A stretch of DNA of 64,000 nt from a virus (IMGVR_UViG_3300033489_000001:126023-190022); one strand, 5' to 3'. Shown: positions 10,128 to 64,000, numbered from the stretch's first letter. Numbers and translations are program-made. Notes: generated by a model not told the origin, from the letters alone.

Positions 10128-10422
10128 TTGATTGCTCTCCTCTGTATTCCGGGGGCCACGGACGCTTACGGAACTCCATAGAATCTGAACCTGAATTGTA
10201 GGCTAAGTGACTCTCGATGGCTTTCCCATCCTCAATTACGATGATTGAATCGAGGTAGGAGAAGAAGAACACCCCTTCTTTTTCTGTGTGGCCGACCGGA
10301 CCACTGTAGCAATCTGGAATTAAATACTTCTCTCGCGCATCTCCCATGGTTTTTTCTCCTTGCCCACCTTCTTTAATGAGTGAGCCATCCCCCGTGTTCC
10401 CAACGCCCTTCCCCTTCGTCAA
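10120..10422 (-). CDS. hypothetical protein
   Basis: 100 aa. Confidence 0.45.
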   Translation of the reverse strand: MTKGKGVGNTGDGSLIKEGGQGEKTMGDAREKYLIPDCYSGPVGHTEKEGVFFFSYLDSIIVIEDGKAIESHLAYNSGSDSMEFRKRPWPPEYRGEQSNA

Positions 10423-10654
10423 TCAAGGCGGCCGTATGTTCGTCTTCTTCAAGCTCTCGGTTGATATGCCGAGCACTTACATCCATACGCTGACCAGCGG
10501 CGTCCAGGGCCTCTTGAGCCTTTCTGGTAGAATCCGCCAATCGGTCCAAGTCCGCTATCGCCTTTTTCATCGTGCGGATGACCGGCAAGGCTACCCCAAC
10601 CAGTATAAAAAGGCACAAGGCGAAAATAGCGAGTAGTGTTCCGTATGGTTGCAT
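10373..10654 (-). CDS. single-pass membrane protein
   Basis: 93 aa, N-terminal hydrophobic helix. Confidence 0.45.
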   Translation of the reverse strand: MQPYGTLLAIFALCLFILVGVALPVIRTMKKAIADLDRLADSTRKAQEALDAAGQRMDVSARHINRELEEDEHTAALIDEGEGRWEHGGWLTH

Positions 10655-10925: not shown

Positions 10926-10991
10926 TTTATTTTTAGCTCGGAAATTCGAGGAGGTCATCAAATTAAAGTAAGCACACCTTAATGAGTGGGA

Positions 10992-11477
10992 CTATCGCCC
11001 ACACCCGTACTTGCACCCGGCCTGACAAGGAAGGCCCTGCATCATACGTTCTGTGGCTTCATCATCGGGAATTGGCCAACCATAGTGCTCACAAATGAAC
11101 TTGAGAACTGGGGCACCATATTGAGCATAGTTGTTTTCTCCTAAGAAGATAATTTGTGCTTCAACCTCGTCATCCCCGAGCAACCATGCCCATGCTTGCA
11201 TTTTATCCAGAGTTCGGCCAGCGCTTATGCCACGATGATCCTGACACTTCGGCCAGCCATATTGAGCCATGTAAATTCTAGCCTCCTCAAGAATATTTTC
11301 TCGCGTACACCCCAGGTGTCCGTCTTTGTCCCATTTTGTTTTTGTCACCGCTTGATCGGTCAGAAATTCTTTTGCAGCCTCAAACTCCAAGTAGCTGACT
11401 AAGACTTCCGGTTGAAAGCTTATCGTTTCTTTCATTTTTTCTCGAATTCGGAGCACGATCTCTTTTTGCGTTCTCAT
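10992..11477 (-). CDS. hypothetical protein
   Basis: 161 aa; partial promoter motif upstream. Confidence 0.55.
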   Translation of the reverse strand: MRTQKEIVLRIREKMKETISFQPEVLVSYLEFEAAKEFLTDQAVTKTKWDKDGHLGCTRENILEEARIYMAQYGWPKCQDHRGISAGRTLDKMQAWAWLLGDDEVEAQIIFLGENNYAQYGAPVLKFICEHYGWPIPDDEATERMMQGLPCQAGCKYGCGR

Positions 11478-12150: not shown

Positions 12151-12234
12151 AATTCTTAAAAATCCCCGCTTTTTTCTTTATTTATAAAGATCGCGGAAAT
12201 TATCACTCCCACCCTCTTTTCAAGATAAAAGCCC

Positions 12235-12903
12235 CTAATGCTTCCGGTGCATGTCTATGATCGACCGGAGAATAAACTTCAACTCCCTTATGTCCTTCAA
12301 AGAATGAGCATAAGGAATCAGATTTTGAAACTTTCGCTTGTCTTTCTCTATATCCCCTGGAGCCCACGCCGGATTGAGAACCATCCCCTCCCAATTAACC
12401 GAATCGTAAAGCTCTACTATATCAGCCTTTATCTTCGGCAGCTCCCTAATGAATCGCTCCGCAACTTCCTTATACCCCACCGCTAACCCTAGCATATCCC
12501 CAACCCGAGCTTGATCCCGCCTCTCCCTGAATAACCCCTGAATAGATGCTAACCCAGAAGCCCCCTCATCATATGAGGCCACAAACTCCTTAGCAGCATC
12601 CCCACGCTCAAAAAATCGGTCGCCAATGAATGGCCACCACGTTTTGAAAAGAAATCGACTCACCCCCCGTATATCAGCGTTCTTGCTCTTTTTAATAAGA
12701 AAAGTGCTGAAAATATCCTTCCCATCAACTCTATTAAAAGCTTCCTCTAATTCATTGAGCCGGTCACCAAGCTTCGCCGTCTCAGGCCCAACCCGCAATA
12801 TCTCGTCAGCTTTCATGAAGCGTGCCGCTACCCGTACATTAGATGCTGTTTCCATAACCCTAAGCGTACCATTAAATGAAAAATCTTGGCTTTTCGTTTG
12901 CAT
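12235..12903 (-). CDS. hypothetical protein
   Basis: 222 aa. Confidence 0.55.
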   Translation of the reverse strand: MQTKSQDFSFNGTLRVMETASNVRVAARFMKADEILRVGPETAKLGDRLNELEEAFNRVDGKDIFSTFLIKKSKNADIRGVSRFLFKTWWPFIGDRFFERGDAAKEFVASYDEGASGLASIQGLFRERRDQARVGDMLGLAVGYKEVAERFIRELPKIKADIVELYDSVNWEGMVLNPAWAPGDIEKDKRKFQNLIPYAHSLKDIRELKFILRSIIDMHRKH

Positions 12904-13139
12904 TTAATGGATTTCTAATACAACTTCAAAACAGACCCTAACAAAGGTCTACAGCTCTTTGAAAAAGATAAGCGGTTCTAAAGAAAGTCTTCCTTTAGGT
13001 AAAATCTGAAAAGCGAGAGCTGTTTGGAGAAGGTTTTATACCTTCGCCGATAATTGAAACGTCCAGAAATTACCGGCCCTAAAAAATTTCCGCTTTCTCA
13101 AAAACCCCTACACCATTTCAAAAAAGGGGTATCCCCCAC

Positions 13140-14500
13140 GAAAATCAAAGAGCCTATTTATAGCCTCTAGGTTCGTTTTTTCCTTCCGCCCACTAACGAG
13201 CGAAGCGAGTATCAGCCAAAAGCCGAGAGGAGCCTATTTATGTCCCACTCATAAAGAAAGTGGGCTTTCTTTGTAGCTGCACTCTATCCAAAAGAAGATA
13301 AAAATCAAACCGTTTATTTATCAAGATCCGTACTGGACCATATAATCTGCCCCCTAAGCGTCACCTCCAACCCTCCTTCCCGCTCACAAACCCCAAAAGT
13401 ACCCTGCCTCGTCTCTACCCCAACTACATCGTATACCCTGGAAAGTAATACGTTTTGCGTCGTTTCAATCGCTACTAAATGCTTACCGTCACCTATCCGT
13501 ATCTTCATGGCGTTCCCTCTCATATCTAGGTGAAAAGACCTATACCCCAAAATCCCCCTATCCGAAAATTTCAACCATAAAAAAATTCCGCCTCCCCCTG
13601 AAAACCTACCCCTTTCTAAAAAGACCCCCTCCCCTTTATCTCGCTCCCTATGTAACTCGCTAACGCTCAAACCTTTCCTTAAATGACCTTTCAGAATTCC
13701 TCCGTTTAAGACCATGCGTATACTGAATGTGCCAATTACGGATAATAGCAAATTTTAAAAAAATAATGAAGCGGTTTTCCCCAATTTTTACCGCAAATAT
13801 CTTTATAAATAAAGATGGGATTAATCCGAGTAAATGGTATGGATCTTGATCATATAGCAACTGTAGTTGATCAAATCAAGATCAGCATACAACGAGTAAA
13901 TGGCACGGATCTTGATGATATTACAACTGTAGTTGATCAAATCAAGATCGAGGAACAAGGGCGATGGCACGACTATGCCCCTTCGGGGCGGGTCAAGCCG
14001 TGGCCATAGTTGTTCGATGATCTTTATTTATAAAGACTGTAGGTCATTAAAATAAATAAGGCCGATCTTGATGATATTGCAACTGTAGTTGATATGATCA
14101 AGATCGCGGGGGCTTAAAAGAGGCGGTGGTATAAAGGGAAAAGGGCATAGTCAAGCCCCTTAGTATACCTCCGGCCCTTCGGGCCGGGCAAGAACCGGTG
14201 GGCATAGACCATGCCAAGGATTATTGAAACCGATCTTTATTTATAAAGATCAGAAAAAATAAATTGGCATGGATCTTTATTTATAAAGATGGGGGCTATT
14301 ATTTGAAGCCAAGCTTGTGTTGGGCCTCGTGCGGCATAGATACCGGCTCCGGGAGCCGGGTCAGGGCGGCCTCCGGCCGCCAAGGACTAAGGCATCTGGC
14401 TATAGGGCTACTGGTTTCTTGCCCCTACCATCTGGGCGATAGGCTAGGGGCTTCGGGGGCACTATGTTAAGGGCCTCGAGCCGGACGATGTCCTTCTGTA
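13140..14500. repeat. repeat-dense non-coding region A
   Basis: 3 copies of a 42 bp GATCTTGAT...ATCAAGATC palindrome (13842-13883, 13908-13949, 14055-14106), >=4 M2 palindromes, UUCG-loop GC hairpins; no convincing CDS. Confidence 0.7.
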
Positions 14501-17459: not shown

Positions 17460-17527
17460 CCGTATGAATGTTTTTGACTCTATAGGGGGCAAGGTCGGAT
17501 AAAAATTCTTCACTCAATTCTAAGAAC

Positions 17528-17561
17528 TTGAATTATTCTTTCCCCCGGTGTAGTAATAGTT
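17528..17561 (+). promoter_or_regulatory. M1 promoter motif (plus orientation)
   Basis: TTGAATTATTCTTTCCCCCGGTGTAGTAATAGTT then ATG 17562. Confidence 0.7.
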
Positions 17562-21800: not shown

Positions 21801-21807
21801 GAAAAAC

Positions 21808-21841
21808 TTGAATTATTCTCTTCCTCGGTGTAGTAATAGAT
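21808..21841 (+). promoter_or_regulatory. M1 promoter motif
   Basis: Abuts ATG 21842. Confidence 0.7.
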
Positions 21842-22461: not shown

Positions 22462-22845
22462 ATGGCTTACTGCAAACGCTCTGGATATTGCTGCATCATG
22501 TATGACGTAATTATTGCCATCGAAGAGCCAGATTGTCAGCTCGGACTTTATCACAAACCTACTGGCGTTCGTTGCCCGCACCTGAGCTTCGAGCCGGAAA
22601 CTGGAGACGCCGTCTGTGCTGTTCATGATGAACCTTGGTTCCCACAAACCCCGTGCTACTCTTTTAATAACCCGGACATTGATCCGGACGCCTGCTGTCA
22701 TAAAGGCGGCTGCCGCATTGGACCGTACGTAAGGGAAAAAGAAGGTGGCTGCTTAGCCGAGTTCATGCAAGTCCACTCTAAAGGTCAAGTTGAAAGGTTA
22801 GGTGCTTGGTCGGACTGGCAAGATGGCGTAGAAGAAGATGATTAA
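22462..22845 (+). CDS. Cys-rich hypothetical protein
   Basis: 127 aa, many Cys/His. Confidence 0.5.
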   Translation: MAYCKRSGYCCIMYDVIIAIEEPDCQLGLYHKPTGVRCPHLSFEPETGDAVCAVHDEPWFPQTPCYSFNNPDIDPDACCHKGGCRIGPYVREKEGGCLAEFMQVHSKGQVERLGAWSDWQDGVEEDD

Positions 22846-23040
22846 AACGCTTGGAGTTCAAAGCCCAAATTGTATCGATTGTCTCCTTTCTTTTAGGGAT
22901 TATAAGAAGCGTGCTCGTTGCAATCATCCCGAAGCCAATAGGATGAAAGTACGCATCTATTGGTCGGAGCCCCCGGAGAACTGCCCTCTAAGAAAAGGGC
23001 CTTTAATCATTAAACGGGTCTTCTAATTGGAGAAACACAG

Positions 23041-24112: not shown

Positions 24113-25150
24113 ATAAATAGCCTCATCTTTATTTATAAAGATCCCTACCCTTTATTTATAGCCTCATCTTTATTTATAGCCTCTGGCTATTTTTTAATTT
24201 CAAAAATCCGTACCTCCCTATTTTTATAATTGGATAGCCGCAATAAATGGTACGGATCTTGATTTGATCAACTACAGTTGCTATATCATCAAGATGGGGC
24301 TATTTACTCTCTCTATTCCGATCTTGATTTGATCAACTACAGTTGCTATATCATCAAGATCCCTCGAACGACAATGGCATAACCTTTGCCCGGCCTTCGG
24401 GCCGGGCGTGGTGAGCCTTAGGTCACTCGAATATTCTTCCTATCTTTATTTATAAAGATCCTCATAATTATTTTCATCTTTATTTATAAAGATCCCACGT
24501 ATACACGAGCCATGCTCCGCCCCGTAGGGGCGGCTGGCATTGTCAATGTAAAATTCACATGCCTGCTGAATAAAATTGTCAGGCCGGAAATACCGTTACC
24601 ATTGTAATCTAACAGTGCGAAATCATTTATTGTTTTGTACAAGAACCATGCCAATATATTTTCCATATTTTCCAACCTTTTCAGAAAATAAGTTTACATT
24701 CTGACTGTACAGGATCTTGATAAATAGGGTTTTGAAAAATAGAAGTAATCAAATAAATTGGATCAATCTTTATAAATAAAGACAGGATGAATAATCTGAG
24801 GGTAATGGGGCTTACCCGGCCGGGCCTTCGGGGGGCACGGCAAGGTTATTCCCATTACCTAGACTACCGTAGAGTGGAAGGAGGTGCATAAGCGACAACC
24901 GAGGCATGGCCCTGGGGCTGGGTGATAAGGCTTAGGGCGTGTCATAGAGGCTTGGGGGCGGAATTGACGCTGTTACTAGTACTAGATAGGGTTTAGGGCG
25001 GGATTAGGGGATTGAGGGGGCTCTGATAGGGGTATGGAAGGCTTTAGGCAACCTTCTTGGAACAAAGGGGGGGGTTGATTAAATAAAAGGTCAAAGGCAA
25101 ACTAGCTTGGTGTTATTTAGAGATTGGAAAGAGCAAGGTTGAGAAAGGGA
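24113..25150. repeat. repeat-dense non-coding region B, inverted relative to region A, followed by a G-rich tract
   Basis: 42 bp palindromes in opposite orientation at 24255-24295 and 24311-24352, >=4 M2 palindromes, UUCG hairpins, TTAGGG-like G-runs at 24850-25090. Confidence 0.7.
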
Positions 25151-25160
25151 TAAAGTTGCT

Positions 25161-25427
25161 GTGTTCAGATTCCACATAAAGGATTACATAGGGCAAAGAG
25201 TCTGCGAGCACGTTAGACTAAAACTAGATTTTCCTACTGATGTACAAAATGCGGGTGAAAAGGTTAGGTACACCTTGGGTCACGAAGGAACTCAATGCTT
25301 CTGTAATTTGAGACTTCTTACGGGGCTTTCAGGGGAAGATTTGTTTCAAGCTTTAGAGGAGCTTAGGGACAAAGGAGTGGTTATTTTCTTAGGGGGGCCT
25401 TTTCGACTATTTAGTGGGAAAAGTTAG
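25161..25427 (+). CDS. hypothetical protein
   Basis: 88 aa ORF after G-rich tract. Confidence 0.3.
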   Translation: MFRFHIKDYIGQRVCEHVRLKLDFPTDVQNAGEKVRYTLGHEGTQCFCNLRLLTGLSGEDLFQALEELRDKGVVIFLGGPFRLFSGKS

Positions 25428-25643
25428 TTGGGAGATATGAATGACGCGGCGTAAGAAAGCTCCTCCTCCCCCTCTTGGCATCATTGTTCCCTATGTGAGT
25501 TTCCTTTACGCTATTGCCTGGGGCTTCTTTCTATCTTCGGGAGACGTGATTCTGTCCGACGTGTGGTTTTCATTATATGCCTAGGGAGCTTCCCCCTGCT
25601 TTGGGACAGCTTTTAAACTGGCTAGAGCATCCGCATAAAAGGG

Positions 25644-25678
25644 CATCTTTATTTATAAAGATAATTACGGGATTTTTT
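25644..25678 (+). promoter_or_regulatory. M2 palindromic motif ATCTTTATTTATAAAGAT + AATTACGGGATTTTT
   Basis: Second conserved upstream element class. Confidence 0.45.
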
Positions 25679-25734
25679 GAAATAAGGGAAGCTGAACCTT
25701 GATAGGCCAGGGTTCCGGTGTAATACTAGCTTGT

Positions 25735-25768
25735 GATCTTTATTTATAAAGATAATTACGGGATTTTT
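25735..25768 (+). promoter_or_regulatory. M2 motif
   Basis: Repeat of the 25644 element, ~70 nt upstream of ATG 25810. Confidence 0.45.
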
Positions 25769-25809
25769 GGGTTAGGCAGAGGTGCAGAATCTTTTCTTTT
25801 TTAGGAATT

Positions 25810-26196
25810 ATGAATACAAAGCGTCCTGATTGTTTAGCTTGTGGGGTATGTTGTTGGGCTATGGAAGAGGCCAAGCTACTGGATTCTTGGGGTCGGAAGC
25901 ACATTGTAGAGGTTCCCTGGAATGATCCTCACGCTTGGGTAGGGACTTACGGAGCCATTGAGACCAAGTGGCGAACGATGAAGGCTGGTCCTTTGAAAGG
26001 GCGGGAGATTCTTATTTGTGAAGCTTTACGAGGCTCGATGCTTCATCGAGTTAAATGCAGTATTTATGAAAAGAGGCCTTCGGTTTGTAAGGTGACTTTT
26101 CGGCCTGGGGACTTAGCATGTTTGAAGTTGAGGAGGAGGCTTGTAAGTGAAACATACAAGGTGTCTAGACAAGAAGACGCCACAAGAGGTCCTTGA
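25810..26196 (+). CDS. YkgJ-family CxxCxxCC zinc/iron-chelating domain protein
   Basis: 128 aa; CLACGVCC ... CSIYEKRPSVC pattern. Confidence 0.6.
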   Translation: MNTKRPDCLACGVCCWAMEEAKLLDSWGRKHIVEVPWNDPHAWVGTYGAIETKWRTMKAGPLKGREILICEALRGSMLHRVKCSIYEKRPSVCKVTFRPGDLACLKLRRRLVSETYKVSRQEDATRGP

Positions 26197-26334
26197 GGTT
26201 TTAGAGCCTTTAGAAAGCCTCCAGTTCCTATCTTAGATGAACAGAGCTAATCTTGGCTTTTCCGCCTATAAAGGCAAAGGGGAGCCATTTAGAGCAAGTG
26301 CTGGGCATTACGAAAGCGATTAGAAAGGAAAGAT

Positions 26335-26604
26335 ATGATTCCGAAACATCTTCTTCCGCGTACCGTGTTACTAGAAGTTGTCAACCACGAGGAGTACGTT
26401 GAATACGAATCTGAACTTGACCCTGACGGCAAACAAACTTTGAAGCGTAGCCTTGATGGCAAGCCCATTAAAATTGAAGGTTCCGAAACCGCTTTCCTTC
26501 ATTTGAAAGCCCTTGATGGTAAAATCATTCGAGCGCAGATCTCGCATGAAAATCTTGACAAAATCTTAGCTCTCAGATTTCCTGAAGACTTTGACAAGAA
26601 ATAA
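26335..26604 (+). CDS. hypothetical protein
   Basis: 89 aa. Confidence 0.45.
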   Translation: MIPKHLLPRTVLLEVVNHEEYVEYESELDPDGKQTLKRSLDGKPIKIEGSETAFLHLKALDGKIIRAQISHENLDKILALRFPEDFDKK

Positions 26605-26607
26605 AGG

Positions 26608-26636
26608 CTATTTATAAAGATAATTGCGGGCTTTTT
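26608..26636 (+). promoter_or_regulatory. M2 motif (half palindrome) + GGTGTAGAGCTATT
   Basis: Upstream of ATG 26668. Confidence 0.45.
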
Positions 26637-26667
26637 CGGTGTAGAGCTATTATGGAAGCTCCAAATT

Positions 26668-26937
26668 ATGACGAAAGACAAGTTTGAGACCTTAATGCGT
26701 GAGATCACTATAGCGAAGGCGAAGCTTGAAGCTGCTAATATGGCCGTAGATCGAATATGTCTTTCCGAGAAATACCTAGATGCCGTCCGTGGCCATCTAG
26801 GTCATTTTAAGAGAATTAATGGCAAACGGTCTTTACTTGGGTATCCGGTTTACAGGTCCTTGGGTTCTTACGTTAGGTCTTCGGCTAAATTTGGCAAGAA
26901 GGCCATGTATATAGAGTTTTCAGGGCTAGCGGATTAA
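26668..26937 (+). CDS. hypothetical protein (MTKDKFETLM paralog 1)
   Basis: 89 aa; tandem paralog of 26996-27265; palindromic promoter motif upstream. Confidence 0.55.
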   Translation: MTKDKFETLMREITIAKAKLEAANMAVDRICLSEKYLDAVRGHLGHFKRINGKRSLLGYPVYRSLGSYVRSSAKFGKKAMYIEFSGLAD

Positions 26938-26943
26938 TTCATG

Positions 26944-26995
26944 CATCTTTATAAATAAAGATATTTAGCGGGTTTTTGAGGTGTAGAGCTATTGC
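26944..26995 (+). promoter_or_regulatory. M2 motif + GGTGTAGAGCTATTGC -10-like box
   Basis: CATCTTTATAAATAAAGATATTTAGCGGGTTTTTGAGGTGTAGAGCTATTGC then ATG. Confidence 0.5.
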
Positions 26996-27265
26996 ATGAC
27001 AAAAGACAAATTTGAGACTTTGATGTCCGAGATAGCTAAGGCGAAGAGCAAGCTTGAAGCTGCTGATGTTCCGGTGGATCGTATATACATCACCAAGGAG
27101 TACCTAGATGCCATTCGTGGTTATGTAGGGCATTTAGAGAGGCTTGAGGGTAAGCCATCTTTATTTGGGCATCCGGTTTTTAGGGGGCCGGAATCGTTAG
27201 TTACCTCTTCGGCTAAGTTTGGCCTCCGGTGTGTGAAGATAGAGTTTTCGAGGCTAGAGGATTAA
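26996..27265 (+). CDS. hypothetical protein (MTKDKFETLM paralog 2)
   Basis: 89 aa; tandem paralog. Confidence 0.55.
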   Translation: MTKDKFETLMSEIAKAKSKLEAADVPVDRIYITKEYLDAIRGYVGHLERLEGKPSLFGHPVFRGPESLVTSSAKFGLRCVKIEFSRLED

Positions 27266-27272
27266 TTCCAGC

Positions 27273-27310
27273 CATCTTTATAAATAAAGATATTTAGCGG
27301 ATTTTTCAAG
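27273..27310 (+). promoter_or_regulatory. M2 motif
   Basis: Same palindrome before ATG 27311. Confidence 0.45.
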
Positions 27311-28113: not shown

Positions 28114-28410
28114 ATGAAGCGTTATGTTATTCGGCAAGTTTTACTTCGGAGTGATGGGTTTGTAGGGGAGATGGTTATTATTAGGGAAGGTATTTCTACC
28201 CTACTGGAGAGGTATTTAATGCCGTCCAGGGGCGGTTCTATAGGTGCGGGCGATTTTTATGGGTGGGAGACTGAGGTAGAGGCTATTAAGGCGTTGGAGA
28301 GCTTTCTAAAGGCTAATCCGAAGGATTTAAGAGGTACAACCAAGTTTTATCTCGTTGAGATTGATTTTAGCGATAAGGGGAGGATTGATCGGGAGGTGCG
28401 GGAGATATGA
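28114..28410 (+). CDS. hypothetical protein (MKxYIIxQV paralog family B)
   Basis: 98 aa; paralogs at 29842 and 30674. Confidence 0.55.
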   Translation: MKRYVIRQVLLRSDGFVGEMVIIREGISTLLERYLMPSRGGSIGAGDFYGWETEVEAIKALESFLKANPKDLRGTTKFYLVEIDFSDKGRIDREVREI

Positions 28411-28712
28411 GTGCGAAGCCTAAGATTTACAAGTGCAAGGTAACGATTGAGTACATGGCTCTAGCTACATGTGAGAAAGACGCAATAGAGCTTGCTGAGG
28501 AAGCCGTTCGGACGGACGGCGTACATGGGGGCGTAGTAGCCGAGCCTTACCGAGGGGTAATGGCGGATGGTTGGAGCCTACCTTGTTTACTTTACCACCC
28601 GGCTATAATCATTAGCGGGAAGGAGTACGCCAAGGAAGACGAGATAGAACTTGGGGCTGCTCTTGAATTGCTGAAGGTTTCCGCCACCGTTATAACCAAG
28701 GAACAAGCATGA
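28407..28712 (+). CDS. hypothetical protein
   Basis: 101 aa, ATGA overlap with upstream gene. Confidence 0.5.
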   Translation: MSAKPKIYKCKVTIEYMALATCEKDAIELAEEAVRTDGVHGGVVAEPYRGVMADGWSLPCLLYHPAIIISGKEYAKEDEIELGAALELLKVSATVITKEQA

Positions 28713-28844
28713 CGAACGGTGAGTCCCACTCAATAAGTAGGTGGGCTTACTTTGATTTTGATGAACCTCATTCTGTAAAAGAAGATGAGGCATCAGCGGT
28801 TAATTTGTCTCAAGAAGGATAAAAGTCAAGAGGGACCTTTTGGC

Positions 28845-28881
28845 TTGAACTTCTCTTTTCTTCGGTGTAATAATAGGAGTT
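28845..28881 (+). promoter_or_regulatory. M1 promoter motif (variant TTGAAC / TAATAAT)
   Basis: Abuts ATG 28882. Confidence 0.55.
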
Positions 28882-29160
28882 ATGCTAGAAAAAGAGATAA
28901 GAGTAGAGATAGAGGAAGTTCTAAAAAGTCTACTAATGTCGGGGTGGCATAGGAAATTATTATCTTACCTTTTGTTTTTTATCAACTTGAGAGAGTACGT
29001 TGAAGAGCGGCCCTTACTATCGGCCATTGTTCTTCATGAAGGGGGCTCTGAGCCAGGGGTTGGATTTTTCAAGCTTGCGGAATTTCTGGATTTAGACTGT
29101 TCAGATCGTGTTAAGTTCCATAGCGAAGAGATGAAGCGAGTGATGGCTTATTGGCAGTAA
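28882..29160 (+). CDS. hypothetical protein
   Basis: 92 aa; ATG abuts promoter motif. Confidence 0.55.
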   Translation: MLEKEIRVEIEEVLKSLLMSGWHRKLLSYLLFFINLREYVEERPLLSAIVLHEGGSEPGVGFFKLAEFLDLDCSDRVKFHSEEMKRVMAYWQ

Positions 29161-42656: not shown

Positions 42657-42884
42657 ATGTCACTAGCTGAAGAAGCAATGGAAGGGTACTGTTGTAGTCG
42701 TTGTGGGACGAAGTTTATAGCTCCGCACGGCTACCCAGTACTCTGTAAAAGCTGTTACCAGTGGGTCCCGCTCATTAAAGAAGGCGGGCTTACTTTGATT
42801 GATGAACCTTACTCTGTAAAAGAAGGTAAGGCATCAAGTAGGCAATGTCCCTCAAAAAGAATGAAAGTCAAGGTATTCTCATGA
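42657..42884 (+). CDS. Zn-ribbon small protein
   Basis: 75 aa; CCSRCG...CKSC; 3' end overlaps conserved non-coding-like block. Confidence 0.4.
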   Translation: MSLAEEAMEGYCCSRCGTKFIAPHGYPVLCKSCYQWVPLIKEGGLTLIDEPYSVKEGKASSRQCPSKRMKVKVFS

Positions 42885-56470: not shown

Positions 56471-56830
56471 AAAAATGACAACAAAGCTATTAATCTACGT
56501 AGTGGTGCCAATACTTTGTGGGGCATTATATATCGTAGTTATGTTTCATTTGGGATACTAAAAGAGTCAGGAAGGGTATGCCAAAGCGTAATAAAAAACT
56601 GCCTCCACTCCCTGAAACAATTCCTACGGCTCTCTTATCCGATCCGGAGTTCCGGATTCGGGTCAAACGGCGGGTAGGACCTTCTTTCGGGGAATGGTTA
56701 GTTGTAGAAGACGTGTTGAATGCAACGTTGATTGTATTGAGAACAGCTCCCCCTAGATAAACCTGACCCATGGGCTCCAAAAAAGTAAGAAATGAGTTGT
56801 GATGATTAACCCAGTTCATATCGATTTAAC

Positions 56831-56864
56831 TTGAATTTTTCTCTTTTCCGGTGTAGTAATAAGT
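56831..56864 (+). promoter_or_regulatory. M1 promoter motif
   Basis: Abuts ATG 56865 (DUF262 gene). Confidence 0.7.
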
Positions 56865-58758: not shown

Positions 58759-59200
58759 AGTTACACTCAGCCGATATACCCTATGGTTGGCCAGTTTTGA
58801 TAAGTGGTGCCGATCTTGGAACATAGATAGAAAGACTGGCCTTATTGTACTGGAAATTATCAGCAAGCTAGATGACGAGGGGCTCAGTCTTTTAAAATGG
58901 ACTGAGGTTCTTGTTTACCTTGAGCACCTCAAAAAAGACGAGCAATACGCAAGGAGAGACGAGGGGGCCGAAGTGAACACAGAGGGGGACTTTCAAAAAG
59001 GTGACCATCTCCGGGTTATGAAAGCCGTTCCTAAAGCGCCGGGTATAAGAGCACTAAAAGAGGGGGAGATAGTTGAATTTGTCCAATACTCTTCTGAGGA
59101 CAAGCAAATATCCCTGGTTGATTGTGAAACAGAGGATAGTGAATTGGCATTCACTTCTAAATATGTACCCACAGAATCCTTGGAGAAAGTTGTGGAATGA
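58715..59200 (+). CDS. hypothetical protein
   Basis: 161 aa. Confidence 0.45.
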   Translation: MGIQHSAKRFHPMDKVTLSRYTLWLASFDKWCRSWNIDRKTGLIVLEIISKLDDEGLSLLKWTEVLVYLEHLKKDEQYARRDEGAEVNTEGDFQKGDHLRVMKAVPKAPGIRALKEGEIVEFVQYSSEDKQISLVDCETEDSELAFTSKYVPTESLEKVVE

Positions 59201-59661
59201 AGAAAGAGTCAAACCCAAACTTCCCTATAGGGTCCCGCGTGGAACTAAAGCCGCACCTTGACAGTTGGATGCGCGGTGACCGGTATGGAGACGTAATAGG
59301 TTACAGGCCCGAATTTATTCGAGTTAAACTAGATAAATCCAAAGAGACACGGCTTTTCAAAGAAGAGGACCTTACGCTGGTTCCGGAATCTATGCAAGGT
59401 TTATTGAGCGTATTGAATGAGATATCTGCTGCTGAAAAAACAGGGGTAGATGCTTTGATTAAAGGAGACATGGACACGTTCAGTTCCGTGAATCAAAGTA
59501 TGAAGGACTTCAACGAGCGAGGAGTTGAAGCTGTTCACGCGCTGCTTGTTGAGCATCCGGAGCTTAGGCCCAATGGGTACGTTCCGGTCCCACTTATTAA
59601 AGAAGGTGGGCTTACTTTGGAAGAGGAAAAGATCATAGCCAAGAAAAGGGTAACTTTGTGA
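59197..59661 (+). CDS. hypothetical protein
   Basis: 154 aa; 3' end carries the conserved GGTGGGCTTACTTTG element. Confidence 0.5.
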   Translation: MKKESNPNFPIGSRVELKPHLDSWMRGDRYGDVIGYRPEFIRVKLDKSKETRLFKEEDLTLVPESMQGLLSVLNEISAAEKTGVDALIKGDMDTFSSVNQSMKDFNERGVEAVHALLVEHPELRPNGYVPVPLIKEGGLTLEEEKIIAKKRVTL

Positions 59662-60443
59662 CCGTGACCCTACGAGAAAACTATATCCAAGCCTTGAAAA
59701 GGCTTCCTATCCTCCGTCCTACGCCGGATGATGTGGCTCAGTTTTGCCCTTATTTACCGAGAGATATCATCGAAAACTTTTTAGCCGAAGGAGGGTACCT
59801 AACTTGTCCCCCTCTCAGGGTTCAGGATGCATTTCAAATCATCTCTTATGACAAAGACACTGGATGGCTCAATTATAACTTTGCGAGCCGTTTACAAGAT
59901 AGCTGGCTTCAAGCGTATGATAAAGAAGCTGTCAAGTTTGCAAATGATTATTGGCCAGCGGAGTTGATCGAAGACAATTGGGATGATATCCTTACCCTTT
60001 CTATTCAAGATCCTACTGACCTAAATCAGAACGGGAGCCCCAAAACAAAAACAAATCTCTATGTCTGTTTCAATCGTCCTTTTGGGGCCTTGATGGCTGA
60101 TTTGACTGAGCCTACAAGCGTGTTGATGGACAAAGCTATATGTGTAATGTCTCTTGATTCGTTTGTATACCGGGAACTCAAAGGGAGTCGGGGAGGGTAT
60201 GCTGATAACTGTTGCGCTTATTGTGGGCATGGTCTTAGTTTGGACGGGTGCCGTGGCTGCGGGCATAAGTTTACGGACAATGGAACTCGACACGGTTGGG
60301 GTACGCCCCTCTCACAAATGATGGTTGGCTTTCTTCAAGAACATGGCTTTACATTTAAACAAGGCCCAGAGATTGCCTGGAAACTCGAGGCAGAAAAATA
60401 TAAGGAACAAATAGAGAGAATAACCGCACGGATTGAGCTATAG
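59658..60443 (+). CDS. hypothetical protein with C-terminal Cys cluster
   Basis: 261 aa; CCAYCGHGLSLDGCRGCGHKF. Confidence 0.55.
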   Translation: MTVTLRENYIQALKRLPILRPTPDDVAQFCPYLPRDIIENFLAEGGYLTCPPLRVQDAFQIISYDKDTGWLNYNFASRLQDSWLQAYDKEAVKFANDYWPAELIEDNWDDILTLSIQDPTDLNQNGSPKTKTNLYVCFNRPFGALMADLTEPTSVLMDKAICVMSLDSFVYRELKGSRGGYADNCCAYCGHGLSLDGCRGCGHKFTDNGTRHGWGTPLSQMMVGFLQEHGFTFKQGPEIAWKLEAEKYKEQIERITARIEL

Positions 60444-60898
60444 GGGTTTTACATAGCAAAAGCTTACACGTCCCACACAATAAGGAGGTGGGTTTACTTT
60501 GATAGCATTGCAGAATCCAAGTGGTTAGCCTCTGTTCTGGAGAAAGTGTAAATTTTCCAATCACTGACTGAAAATTTCTTTTGAACGAAAGATAGCACAT
60601 GAAATACAAAATATGGATCGAAGGTTATAGGGCCACCGGAGGTCCCGCTCATTAAGTAGGCGGGTTTACTTTGAGTTCTTTATCTTATCGCTACTGTAGT
60701 TGATCAAATCAAGATGGGAATGGAGTCTAAGAATCATGACTTTTAATCATAGCCTGATCCTAGAGCAACCGTCTATGCTGTGCCTATCCCCCCTAGGCGC
60801 TCGGATGTGTGTAGCTCGATTGGGCTATGATTCAAGATCATGAGCCAATTTTCCAATCATTGATGGGAGACTTAGGACTATAACTGAGCAGAAAGCCA

Positions 60899-61507
60899 AT
60901 GAAACCGTTAGTGCAGCAATACCTTTTACTCAAAAAGAATTACGTGGACTATTACATTTTGGTTACTTGGCCAAAAAAGTTTATAGTAAAGAAAGATGGG
61001 GACATAGAACCTGTACCTAAAGTGCTTACTCCAAAACAACAGAAAATTCTAGATACCTCAAATGAAGCCATGGATTTCTTAGCTTCTAAGATGTCGTGTG
61101 AAGAAAGGTATCTTGCTGGCATTCCTAGAGGAGTTTATATGAGGGCGGAAGCTAAAGCATTACTCAAAGAATTACTTTGTCACCATAGAGTAGTAACCAA
61201 GCAAGACCCCCTTGAAAAAAATCTCATCATATCCCAGTACTTGATTTTTTATGGTGTGCTCTGTTCTAGAATTGGAGCACCTTGGTTGACACTTAGAATT
61301 GGCTCATTCTTGATGGAAATAGCTGAATGGTGTGCTGCAATGGGTTATCCGGCATTGAATGCTCTAGCGGTAAATCATGAAACAGGTTATCCTGATAGTA
61401 GTTATGATGGAGCCGGGGGATTTAAACTAAAGGATTGGGACAAAGAAGTTGAAAGGGTCATTCGGTTCACAAGCTATCCGATTGATCCTCCAGAAACAAT
61501 CAAGTAG
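60899..61507 (+). CDS. hypothetical protein
   Basis: 202 aa. Confidence 0.5.
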   Translation: MKPLVQQYLLLKKNYVDYYILVTWPKKFIVKKDGDIEPVPKVLTPKQQKILDTSNEAMDFLASKMSCEERYLAGIPRGVYMRAEAKALLKELLCHHRVVTKQDPLEKNLIISQYLIFYGVLCSRIGAPWLTLRIGSFLMEIAEWCAAMGYPALNALAVNHETGYPDSSYDGAGGFKLKDWDKEVERVIRFTSYPIDPPETIK

Positions 61508-61575
61508 GCAGAAGGTTACCTCAGTTCTCGCAGTCCCACACCTTAAAGAAGATGGGCTTACTTTGCTCGCTTAGT

Positions 61576-62952
61576 TTACCTAAGCTCCTTCATAATCTCG
61601 GTCACTTCCGGCGGTAGAGATTCCCCTAACATGTACAAAGAAAAAGCTTCGGCGAAATTCTCTAGCCAGCCCTTTTTAGCATAAGGGGTCACGGCGATAG
61701 GCTCACGAATAATCTTGTCCGTTCGTATCGTGATGTCCGCCTCGGAAGATAAAGCCATCCCATCCCGGAGAGCTTTACGGTTTGTCTCACTAGGGTCCTT
61801 CAAGAACTCTTGGGAAAGATCCCTGAGCTTAGGTCCATTTTTGTGAATGAGGTACTTTAGATATCGGGTAAGTAGGTCTGATTGTATGACCTTTTTACCT
61901 TGTGCTTGTGCCTCAGCAATTGCTAAAAACTCATCGGCCAGCTTAGCTCTGGTGACCTTGTCAAACACGATGGTGTCATAAACCGGGTTGACTGACAGCG
62001 CCCAAAAAGCGTCCCTTTGCCCTTTATCTTTCCAAAACTTGTGTGCGTAGCGGTGTCCGAACTCATGGCACAAAGAACGAACATCTCCCACCGTCTTTGA
62101 CGCCCGCAACCCAAGTTGTATGGTGTCTTGTCCGGCCACGTAAGAAGCAACCCCGCCTGACACCGTCCGGTTGATGTAAACCTTGCCGTAAAGTAGCTGG
62201 GAGAACTTGGGACGAATCGCTTCAGCGGCTTTATCTAAAGCCTCTAGGCAGTCCTTCATTTTGGGGCCAGACACACCCGGCATGGGTATGATGGTAAAGT
62301 CACCATGGGGGAACTCAGAGCCTTCAGCATTGACTTTACCGTCTAACCAAGAGGCTTCTCGAGCGAGTGCCTCAAAACGATTGATCAAACCATGTGGGAC
62401 AGGCCCCTCTGTTAGGTACTTGGGTAAAGATCGGCGAAGATCTTTGGCCTCTCTGATGATTTTTCTAACCTTATTTTGGATTTGGGGGCCTAGAGCGTAA
62501 AACCATTCGGCTTCCAAAACGATGGCATACCCTATTTCGGCTTCTACCTCTCCCACCTCTAGAAAGGTCCAGAAATCGTCCAGAGCTTTGATGGCTGCCT
62601 CTACATTGCCTTTTCGTAGTGAGGCCGCTCCAGCGTCCATAAGGCTGCCAAGATTACGTTTGGAGGTCAGGTAACGGGAGGCAACCCGTATGGCCGCCTC
62701 TGCCCTTGCCCTTTCAGCAATAGCCTTTTCCTTTACGTCGGCTCTCCAGATACGATACAGGCCTAAGACTTTGTTTTTCTTTCTGCCTTTGGGGATTGGT
62801 TCTATCTCGATCGTGGGGTTGCCATATTGATCAGCCCCAAAACCTACTACCCGGCCCCGATGGTTCTTCCATTTTCCGTAAAGAACTTCAGTTCCTATTG
62901 AGAAATAGGATGAGGCGAACCTCTTGAGAACTCTTAGTGCGGGGGTGTCCAC
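61576..62952 (-). CDS. HExxH zinc-metallopeptidase-motif protein
   Basis: 458 aa; LCHEFGHRYAHKFW contains HExxH; divergent from the adjacent repeat array. Confidence 0.6.
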   Translation of the reverse strand: MDTPALRVLKRFASSYFSIGTEVLYGKWKNHRGRVVGFGADQYGNPTIEIEPIPKGRKKNKVLGLYRIWRADVKEKAIAERARAEAAIRVASRYLTSKRNLGSLMDAGAASLRKGNVEAAIKALDDFWTFLEVGEVEAEIGYAIVLEAEWFYALGPQIQNKVRKIIREAKDLRRSLPKYLTEGPVPHGLINRFEALAREASWLDGKVNAEGSEFPHGDFTIIPMPGVSGPKMKDCLEALDKAAEAIRPKFSQLLYGKVYINRTVSGGVASYVAGQDTIQLGLRASKTVGDVRSLCHEFGHRYAHKFWKDKGQRDAFWALSVNPVYDTIVFDKVTRAKLADEFLAIAEAQAQGKKVIQSDLLTRYLKYLIHKNGPKLRDLSQEFLKDPSETNRKALRDGMALSSEADITIRTDKIIREPIAVTPYAKKGWLENFAEAFSLYMLGESLPPEVTEIMKELR

Positions 62953-63004: not shown

Positions 63005-64000
63005 ATTTCAATTACAGAGGGAAGGATTACCTCCCCTCCTTATTAAGCATAATAGAATGTCGAGAGTCATTTCAATTTCAGGGGGAGAATTACTCTCCCT
63101 CCTTTTGCTCCCCTCCTTCTGAGTGCTTTGAGTAGTGATGGTTTCAATTACAGAGGAAGAATTACTCTTCCTCCTTATGTGCGTCTCTTACAACAGACAC
63201 GTATGGCGTTTCAATTACAGAGGAAGAGTAATTCTTCCTCCTCCTTCGGCTACTGAGGACAATTGTCAGTTGCCAATTAGTTTCAATTTCAGAGGGATAT
63301 TTACTATCCCTCCTTGGGTGAGCTATCCATGCCGGTGTTCAATTACGTTGCAATTACAGAGGAAGAATTACTCTTCCTCCTTACAGATAACAAGCTTCGT
63401 CCACATTGCCTTGGTTGTTTCAATTCCAGAGAGAGTAAATATCCCTCTCCTTTAAGTATATTTTAACTATCGAAGGGTCGCAAGATCTGGGATTTCAATT
63501 CCGGAGGGAGAATTACTCTCCCTCCTTGCACTCGAGCGGATGCCGTGAGGGTTCTTTTGTTTCAATTTTAGAGAGATATTTACTATCCCTTCTTCTATTG
63601 CAAACGATATTACTTGTTACGGCGATCTCCGGTTTCAATTACAGAGGAAGAGGTATCCCTTCCTCCTTTACTCTATTCTAAAAGTTGAGCCAATGCATTA
63701 TTTCAATTTCAGAAGGAGAATTACTCTCCTTCCTTGCTCGTCAAAATGGATATGCGCTCTAAATCGATACTTGTTTCAATTACAGAGGAAGAGAAACCCT
63801 CCCTCCCTCCCTCCCTCCCTCCCTCTGGTAGATAAATCCTATAGTCTTTCCGGAATATTTTCTTTTCAATTACAGAGGAAGAGGTACCTCTTCCTCTCTC
63901 TTGGGTAATGTAAGAGCGTCCTCGATTGGTGTTTCAATTCCAGAGGGAGAATTACTCTCCCTCCTTAAGTTAGGAGTTGAGCGAGCTAGGCGGGAAGGGT
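63005..64000 (+). CRISPR. CRISPR-like array: >=14 degenerate ~36 bp hairpin repeats with 29-39 bp unique spacers, truncated by window end
   Basis: Consensus (G)TTTCAATTNCAGAGGAAGAATTACTCTTCCTCCTT; period 65-75 bp; stems covary; no cas genes in window. Confidence 0.45.
63797..63821. repeat. (CCCT)6 microsatellite inside one array repeat
   Basis: ccctccctccctccctccctccctc. Confidence 0.9.

Follow-up and report, generated by a model that had tools for sequence, protein, structure and literature searches.

The 64,000-nucleotide stretch of viral DNA analyzed here (IMGVR_UViG_3300033489_000001:126023-190022; henceforth the window) comes from a huge phage of an unsampled lineage and contains a family of repeats of 33 nucleotides (nt), marked by sharp edges, a position at gene ends, co-orientation with the local genes, compensated hairpins on the sense strand, and, in one instance, a replacement junction that coincides with the edges of the block holding the repeat. 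The repeat is real, statistically robust, and lineage-specific, with a genuine hairpin constraint. By analogy to the PeSL (promoter-early stem-loop) cassettes of T4-like phages, we tentatively propose that the unit is a gene-end RNA hairpin, which might serve as a leaky attenuator or 3'-end signal and also lies at mosaic junctions.

Definition and genomic position of the repeat unit

The conserved unit reads GTCCCRC, an 11–12-nt loop (..TAARNAG), and GYGGGYTTACTTTG, and starts 10 nt 5' of a motif reported in six copies in a preliminary description of the window, all of which we recovered (matches at 28733, 42776, 59598, 60480, 60652, and 61544, with at most three mismatches and 0 expected from 100 shuffles). 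The exact 33-nt pattern has six matches in the window versus 0 expected by chance, and repeat finding together with a hidden Markov model (HMM) and a covariance model adds copies 7, 8, and 9. The window thus holds nine copies (0 expected by chance), viz., seven full ones on the plus strand and two decayed ones on the minus strand. Across the full copies, column identity rises from ~0.2 before GTCCC to 1.0 from its G and drops to ~0.3 directly past CTTTG; these jumps at both edges indicate a discrete unit with unrelated flanks on both sides. In 15 kb of flanking sequence from the same contig, the HMM and covariance model turned up no additional copy.

Eight of the nine copies are co-oriented with the local genes, two of them on the minus strand, and both of these sit in a part of the window with minus-strand genes. 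The earlier statement that the motif is always in plus orientation hence holds for the six original copies, whereas for the family as a whole the rule is co-orientation with the local genes. Eight of the nine also lie 0–27 nt past an upstream stop codon, hold that stop codon themselves, or fall in the last codons of an open reading frame (ORF), which fits the previously suggested cis-acting nucleic-acid element tied to gene 3' ends. Three full copies follow a gene at a short distance: copy 1 (28723..28755, +; stem CCCAC/GTGGG and tail CTTACTTTGA) begins 11 nt past the stop of gene 28407-28712; copy 4 (60470..60502, +), whose loop is a perfect Shine-Dalgarno (SD)-like UAAGGAGGUG, begins 27 nt past the stop of gene 59658-60443; and copy 6 (61533..61565, +) begins 26 nt past the stop of gene 60899-61507, within a 68-nt gap on the far side of which lies the convergent gene 61576-62952. 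The degenerate copy 8 (10964..10992, -), with a 4-nt loop deletion, has as its first base the final G of the TAG terminating gene 10992-11477(-). In two further cases the TAA of the loop is itself the stop codon, namely that of gene 10373-10654(-) in copy 9 (10362..10386, -), which retains only the hairpin (CUCAC/GUGGG with a U.G pair) and has its tail replaced, and that of an 18-codon ORF (60600-60656) in copy 5 (60642..60674, +). Copies 2 and 3 are translated: copy 2 (42765..42797, +; CCCGC/GCGGG) is read in frame as VPLIKEGGLTL by ORF 42657-42884 (75 amino acids [aa]), and copy 3 (59587..59619, +; ortholog in a related phage at L040 1054-1087) lies in frame within the final 25 codons of ORF 59197-59661. 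The identical peptide formerly noted in these two ORFs is longer than described and comprises the full VPLIKEGGLTL. Copy 7 (13242..13274, +), with a variant tail CTTTCTTTG, is alone in having no co-oriented gene end upstream; it sits in 1.5 kb of gene-poor sequence.

The clustered copies show an alternating arrangement at 59.5–61.6 kb, with the order motif 3, a 261-aa gene, motif 4, the 18-codon ORF, motif 5, a 202-aa gene, and motif 6. Most of the flanking ORFs are without a Pfam family. Because single accessory genes have the 33 nt between them as direct repeats, the units would lend themselves to serving as joints where genes are gained, lost, or replaced. After copies 1 and 8 comes a member of a promoter-like repeat family (AAAAACTTGAAT..CCGGTGTAGTAATAG; TTGAAY-N17-18-TAGTAAT) and then a start codon. 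The member downstream of copy 1 (28845..28881, +) reads TTGAAC-N18-AATAAT followed by AGGAG, ahead of gene 28882, giving the composite order of stop codon, hairpins, promoter-like repeat, and start codon; that downstream of copy 8 lies at 10930-10894 (-). Across the 33-nt family as a whole, nothing is conserved 3' of the tail.

The promoter-like family itself (AAAAACTTGAATTATTCYCTYCYCCGGTGTAGTAATAGATATG) has ~20 sites on both strands ahead of many genes, e.g., 8103-8067(-), 17522-17558(+), 21802-21838(+), 28839-28875(+), and 56825-56861(+). Its ATG comes just 4–5 nt past the -10-like TAGTAAT, implying leaderless or nearly leaderless mRNAs, and a distant relative, LR745208.1, has an analogous family (AAAAAGTTGYC..CGTGCCGATAGGGGGTGTA).

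Some further repeats adjoin individual copies. The gene-poor stretch hosting copy 7 (12904-14400) combines 66-nt tandem units with a 39-nt repeat (TCTTGATSATAT..CAACTGTAGTTGATCAAATCAAGAT) present three times there and a fourth time at 60677, and with several GC-rich tetraloop hairpins (e.g., gccccTTCGggggc and ccggcccTTCGggccgg), and could hold non-coding RNAs or a replication origin. It is a copy of this 39-nt repeat, otherwise located at 13.8–14.1 kb, that comes at +3 nt from copy 5. Between copy 5 and gene 60899 lies a long inverted repeat (60736-60845; ATCATGACTTTTAATCATAGCC ... GGCTATGATTCAAGATCATGA) forming a ~110-nt hairpin, and the start codons at 60600 and 60899 are each preceded, at a distance of ~50 nt, by a 17-nt repeat (AATTTTCCAATCAYTGA).

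Predicted folding of the sense strand

The fold proposed in the preliminary description, AAGUAGG-YGGG-CUUACUU, lacks support, with the central pair mismatched in seven of ten sequences and a result no better than that of shuffles. The alignment instead accommodates a hairpin, H1, in which the stem CCCRC/GYGGG is supplemented by one U.G and one G-C pair across a bulge and for which 93% of the cells are paired versus 37–52% in slid controls. It has one covarying pair, A-U in seven sequences and G-C in two, and copy 9 stays paired via U.G. Taken together, the support for the H1 fold is suggestive, not conclusive.

Copies 1 and 2 additionally share a ~110-nt block with a second hairpin, H2 (11 bp with an AA bulge), and here the earlier observations of the block, of the hairpin with its 13-nt loop (UCUGUAAAAGAAG), and of two compensatory pairs were all confirmed. 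In copy 1 H2 reads TGATG-AA-CCTCAT, loop TCTGTAAAAGAAG, ATGAGG-CATCA (28759..28795, +), and in copy 2 TGATG-AA-CCTTAC, the same loop TCTGTAAAAGAAG, GTAAGG-CATCA (42800..42836, +), so that two pairs are compensated between them. The remainder of the block extends in copy 1 over 28796..28830 (+), ending in AAAGTCAAG, and in copy 2 over 42837..42880 (+), running up to 42881, where the R2K ATP-grasp gene begins with its ATG. Of 24 pairs predicted for the two blocks, all stay intact and three show compensation. The double changes in H2 alter the encoded amino acids in the shared frame (Y to H, GK to DE); since pairing is kept while the amino acids change, these changes appear to have been selected for pairing and not for protein. 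The 13-nt H2 loop almost equals the H1 loop (UCAUUAAAGAAG), with a shared UC..UAAA(A)GAAG on unrelated stems, a comparison made by a regex-plus-stem scan, as MAFFT placed the two stems in different registers.

Predicted folding energies of the two blocks are -35.9 and -31.3 kcal/mol for the sense strand versus -26.4 and -27.4 kcal/mol for the antisense strand, and G.U pairs are present only on the sense strand. The compensated stems, the better fold of the sense strand, and its exclusive G.U pairs favor an RNA folded from the sense strand over a site in double-stranded DNA.

A mosaic junction in a related phage

A related phage with ~88% nucleotide identity, represented by short contigs in run ERR14794643, allows comparison at two loci, those of copies 2 and 3. 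At the copy 2 locus, contig L047 encodes a homolog (P0019) of the 75-aa ORF that is 89% identical through ..CKSCYQW and unrelated beyond it, with the peptide absent. The DNA homology ends at 42765, the first base of the motif, and restarts at 42881, the ATG of the R2K gene; between these breakpoints the relative has 1,080 nt with three genes and the window has a 115-nt block. As homology breaks exactly at its edges, the copy 2 block can be described as a discrete replaceable module at a mosaic junction, a position that fits the earlier idea of a recombination core. The divergence of the relative's ORF at the motif likewise indicates that the common peptide is a by-product of the ORF running into the block. 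The stop codon ahead of R2K overlaps the start codon of that gene in the window (ATGA) and in LR745208.1 (TGATG) and directly adjoins it in the close relative (TAAATG); this start/stop overlap may explain the open frame through the copy 2 block. At the copy 3 locus, an indel just past the motif in contig L040 shifts the frame, and the protein tail after copy 3 is not conserved; given this frameshift right behind the motif, the conserved protein effectively ends at the copy 3 motif.

The conservation is thus, as had been suggested, at the level of nucleotides and not of protein: the copies fall in different frames, differ by a 1-nt indel, and are mostly non-coding, and the relative's homolog of the 75-aa ORF is without the peptide. 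The Logan contigs of SRR10376092, considered as a second strain, are 100% identical to the window, belong to the same sample, and carry no information on variation.

Searches for relatives

Exact scans with the unit pattern gave 0 matches in IMG/VR and 0 in the GTDB genomes, and the 32 matches in the JGI metagenomes are all chance ones without the loop. BLAST of the block against GenBank phages returned one chance match only, megablast of 16 kb of the window against phages gave no match, and no IMG/VR loci encoding the R2K protein were found. Rfam has 0 matches in the whole window at gathering thresholds, 0 at E<=5 in 28600-28900, and one chance-level match in 60400-60950; a tRNA scan gave no match to the element. 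The HMM and covariance model found no copy in 40 kb of LR745208.1 or in the contigs with homologs of the 261-aa gene. LR745208.1 (uncultured, 485 kb) is the nearest GenBank phage, with 47% amino-acid identity over one protein.

Proposed function and alternative explanations

Under the gene-end hairpin hypothesis, the sense RNA would form a short GC-rich hairpin, CCCRC/GYGGG (5–7 bp), with a purine-rich 9–12-nt loop and, directly 3' of it, a pyrimidine/U-rich tail, YUUACUUUG. At the end of an accessory gene, this structure might act as a leaky terminator or attenuator and also define or protect the 3' end, and the unit would insulate one small transcription unit from the next, sometimes from a position directly ahead of the next promoter. 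Translated copies such as 2 and 3 are probably silent. We infer in this manner an action in RNA, as attenuation or 3'-end definition, and a role in recombination.

Several lines of evidence weigh against this proposal. The simple intrinsic terminator, one of the functions offered in the preliminary description, is doubtful, as the unit is poor by classical criteria: the H1 hairpins have only -3.6 to -8.6 kcal/mol, with stems of 4–7 bp and loops of 8–12 nt; the tail YUUACUUUG has 5–6 U in 9 nt, with its U-tract interrupted by AC; and d'Aubenton-Carafa-type scores, computed with a re-implemented formula, are negative (-21 to -101 for the copies, where the trp attenuator and lambda tR2 score ~+25 to +30), and the tail score nT from the likewise re-implemented formula is lower (1.45–3.2 versus ~4.6 for reference terminators). 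A generic terminator scan passes copy 3 alone, and generic terminator-like sites show no enrichment in the region. The next gene after copies 2, 3, and 9 is only 84, 39, and 15 nt away, respectively, too short a space for a new promoter, so that strong termination there would silence the downstream genes. The covariation statistics of H1 are weak, the observed values being reached in 33–41 of 500 shuffles (n=10 sequences). The most conserved parts of the unit are unpaired, namely the AAG.A of the loop and the tail UUACUUUG; their conservation, which a terminator does not need, hints at recognition by a specific factor acting in trans. The copy 3 ortholog of the related phage (GTCCCACTCATTGAAGAAGGCGGGCTTACTTTG, contig L040) differs at three of 33 positions, two of the three being synonymous in the ORF frame, with the TAA changed to TGA and the covarying pair to a broken A.C, and this in-frame copy appears to evolve largely as coding sequence. 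Synonymous-only variation, which had been named earlier as a sign against a functional element, is accordingly seen in part: it describes the in-frame copies 2 and 3, and the copy 3 ortholog is mostly synonymous, whereas the other six copies are not so explained. Further, no motif was found at the copy 2 junction of the relative, for which reason recombination between motif copies is only conjectural. The sequence examined, finally, comprises the window, placed by exact protein matches at roughly 159–223 kb of the ENA contig ERZ27256988:k141_5351839 (411,476 bp), and a total of ~15 kb of its flanks, out of a 411-kb genome.

Some of the same evidence bears on the alternative that the hairpin is a site for a phage or host trans-acting factor (an RNA-binding protein or a small RNA) controlling mRNA processing, antitermination, or stability, with a logic that might resemble that of boxB/N, Cas6 with CRISPR repeats, or SLBP with histone 3' stem-loops. 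We place this alternative on the unlikely side; it stays a serious one, given the strong conservation of the unpaired loop and tail and the weakness of the stem. The AAG.A loop and the tail are conserved at least as much as the stem, the unrelated stems H1 and H2 present nearly the same 12–13-nt loop, the hairpin is too weak for autonomous termination, and the unit has sharp edges. Against it, there is no candidate binder, with no RNA-binding Pfam family among the 79 window ORFs, and no Rfam match; the copy 3 ortholog tolerates both the loop change from TAA to TGA and a broken pair, and the loop conservation could simply mirror the common descent of the copies. A bolder and likewise unlikely form of the argument would make the unit a gene-end code, comprised of a 12-nt loop on interchangeable stems beside the UUACUUUG tail, that is read by a dedicated phage factor (an RNA-binding or processing protein, or an antisense RNA from copy 7) and sets mRNA 3' ends or gates read-through to the following accessory gene, or else would make the 33 nt a minimal mobile element; if true, either would constitute a regulatory or mobility system without a described counterpart in huge phages.

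Two DNA-level explanations are less likely than a gene-end RNA. The sharp edges and unrelated flanks, the truncated coding sequences fused to the 5' edge of the unit (the copy 2 ORF and the 18-codon ORF at copy 5), the precise replacement of the block at its edges in the related phage, and the patchy, cassette-like distribution of copies around single genes (the 261-aa homologs in bacterial contigs are without the motif) would all suit a recombination or mobility element at gene 3' ends whose hairpins form in single-stranded DNA, with integron attC, REP, and IS200/IS605-type ends as the closest possible analogies. This is nevertheless unlikely, as the 79 window ORFs contain no integrase, transposase, HUH/Y1 enzyme, or homing nuclease by Pfam, the copies are not surrounded by target-site duplications, terminal inverted repeats, or attC core sites, the G.U pairs and better sense fold favor RNA, and the orientation tracks gene direction on both strands. 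A promoter of a phage-specific transcription apparatus (middle or late, of a T7-like contiguous or N4-like hairpin type) driving the downstream gene appears quite unlikely, even though the unit is contiguous, highly conserved, asymmetric, and sharp-edged, has a co-oriented start codon 15–230 nt downstream in eight of the nine copies, and precedes some genes (R2K, 261-aa, and 202-aa) that have no promoter-family repeat in front; phage promoters also commonly overlap the 3' end of the upstream ORF. It is contradicted by copy 6, which faces a convergent gene, by copies 1 and 8, which already have a promoter-family member before the gene, by the very variability of that 15–230-nt distance, and by the lack of any conservation downstream. 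A sigma-70 or MotA-box promoter within the motif was rejected, there being no conserved -10-like element at any spacing. Compensated stems, G.U pairs, and an H2 duplicate with another stem would be unexpected for a double-stranded promoter, and the 9–12-nt loop differs from the 3-nt loop of N4 hairpin promoters.

At the level of translation, the TAA and the SD-like loop/3'-arm (UAAGGAGGUG and variants) might constitute a stop/re-initiation or pausing cassette: the consensus TAAGNAGGYG fits the anti-SD complement at 8–10 of ten positions, perfectly in copy 4, the TAA truly terminates a gene in copy 9 and the small ORF in copy 5, and the R2K start/stop overlap recurs in the window (ATGA) and the distant relative (TGATG), with an abutting TAAATG in the close relative. 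This is very unlikely considering that ORFs from the conserved TTG have 1–29 codons and are not conserved, real start codons stand at variable distances, copy 9 has a separate SD, and the copy 3 ortholog lacks the TAA. That the unit is merely a common C-terminal peptide, VPLIKEGGLTL, of paralogs, with the other copies as decaying pseudogene fragments, is extremely improbable. Two ORFs do encode the identical 11 residues with only synonymous differences between them; set against this, seven of the nine copies either do not code or lie in a different frame with a 1-nt indel, the relative's version of the 75-aa ORF loses its similarity precisely at the motif, the changes in the H2 stem replace amino acids but preserve pairing, and outside the peptide the two proteins have nothing in common. 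We accordingly rejected a coding-motif explanation, the copies being mostly non-coding or out of frame and the relative's P0019 being without the peptide.

Other features of the window

The window is dense in small ORFs, few of which have a Pfam match, with radical SAM, SPFH, R2K ATP-grasp, HD, GmrSD_N, and HicB among the matches. The 261-aa protein (59658-60443) has homologs (37–46% identity) on metagenome contigs of bacteria and on a further, phage-like contig (loci L041 and L042); one of the homologs carries the name of Candidatus Yanofskybacteria, and in one bacterial contig the homolog is close to a gene for bAvd, an accessory protein of diversity-generating retroelements. Such a retroelement was considered and rejected for the window, which has no reverse transcriptase by Pfam and in which the block differences are not adenine-specific. 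Residues 81–198 of the 202-aa protein (60899-61507) correspond to a widespread stand-alone family of ~120 aa, with 133 cluster representatives at E<=0.001; the 202-aa protein itself has no Pfam match.

At the end of the window, a 36-nt hairpin repeat (GTTTCAATTACAGAGGAAGAATTACTCTTCCTCCTT) forms an array of at least 44 units, one every 67–75 nt, across 63006-64000 and its continuation into L038 12105-15000 (~3 kb). The array is followed by a gene for a 771-aa ResIII helicase and a Cas7-family gene and looks like a phage-borne CRISPR locus; its repeats are only 60–90% identical, which is unusual, and have compensatory arms (GAGGAAGA/TCTTCCTC, GAGGGAGA/TCTCCCTC, and GAGGGATA/TATCCCTC). Many near-palindromes, ATCTTTATTTATAAAGAT (or ..TATAAATA..), occur at 12172-14289 and 24123-27290 and hold a T4-late-promoter-like octamer, TATAAATA, in either orientation. 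Three tandem 89-aa ORFs lie at 26335-27265 (starting at 26335, 26668, and 26996); the last two share a 228-nt repeat with 73% identity, each with a TATAAATA-type palindrome upstream. A further hairpin at 22983-23000 (GCCCT-CTAAGAAA-AGGGC, then CTTTAATC), near the end of ORF 22838-23026, loosely resembles the motif and lambda boxB (GCCCUGAAAAAGGGC).

Comparison with known systems

With rho-independent terminators the unit shares a GC-rich stem followed by a U-rich tract, a position at gene ends, an orientation that follows transcription, and, in one copy, a location between convergent genes. Those terminators have loops of 3–8 nt, in contrast to the 8–12 nt, weak hairpin, interrupted U-tract, and negative scores seen here; the loop and tail of the unit are moreover conserved in sequence, and some copies leave no space for a downstream promoter. 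The N4 hairpin promoter has a 5–7-bp stem and a loop of 3 nt, versus 9–12 nt here, with transcription starting ~11 nt downstream. Lambda boxB forms a hairpin whose GNRA-like loop has 5 nt; for boxA the consensus is CGCUCUUUA. Like the lambda nut sites, the unit combines a short GC-rich hairpin, a purine-rich conserved loop, and an adjoining single-stranded pyrimidine-rich box that would act in the transcript. However, its loop has 9–12 nt rather than 5, its tail CUUACUUUG is unlike boxA CGCUCUUUA, and its nine copies stand at gene ends and in some cases precede promoters, as against two nut sites per genome downstream of early promoters.

The stoperators of cluster A mycobacteriophages are similarly numerous, asymmetric, conserved sites oriented with transcription in short gaps or over stop codons. 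They are, however, 13–14-bp double-stranded repressor sites without a hairpin, unlike the folded single strand indicated here, for which no repressor was identified. Two further classes of short imperfect palindromes at gene or cassette 3' ends, both with compensatory changes that conserve structure, are REP/BIME elements, which are associated with the protection of mRNA 3' ends, and integron attC sites, which are associated with cassette exchange; the unit differs in lacking their cores (GTAG of REP and GTTRRRY of attC), in its low copy number, and in its single orientation relative to genes, and neither RAYT nor an integron integrase (IntI) was found by Pfam among the 79 window ORFs.

The closest parallel is with PeSL-type cassettes, which can yield mini-circles by recombination between copies. 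Both are short repeats in the accessory regions of large phages, lying between the stop of a small ORF and the next start, with a stem-loop proposed as terminator or attenuator and copies in direct orientation flanking single ORFs of unknown function. With PeSLs, differences between close relatives (insertion, deletion, or replacement) coincide with the repeats; of the two loci compared here, that of copy 2 has its breakpoints exactly at the block edges, with no motif at this junction in the relative, and copy 3 is conserved in place. In T4-like phages the PeSL order is stop codon, stem-loop, early promoter, and SD/ATG (PMC2839356, Arbiol et al. 2010), a layout present in full at copies 1 and 8 with their promoter-like repeat. 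The PeSL stem-loops were shown to terminate, and indels between close relatives map to them (PMC2839356; PMC4122927, Comeau et al. 2014). The repeats described here differ in that the conserved part is hairpin plus tail and not the promoter, in the large, conserved 9–12-nt loop, in a stem weaker than the polyG/polyC stems of PeSLs, and in the presence of two copies inside reading frames. As most copies (six of the nine) are without a recognizable promoter, there is no sequence homology, and termination and recombination between copies are putative here, we do not claim membership among the PeSLs. The kind of element, a regulatory gene-end hairpin repeat in a plastic region of a large phage, is known, and the sequence family is new; as conserved regulatory repeats are common in large phages, the finding is solid but unsurprising, with a presumptive function. 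How huge phages express and exchange their hundreds of small uncharacterized genes is hardly understood, and a gene-end unit of this type would help to delimit transcription units, to recognize recently swapped cassettes, and to seek the factor that reads it. If the unit is PeSL-like, the modular gene shuffling of T4-like phages would extend to an unrelated lineage of huge phages.

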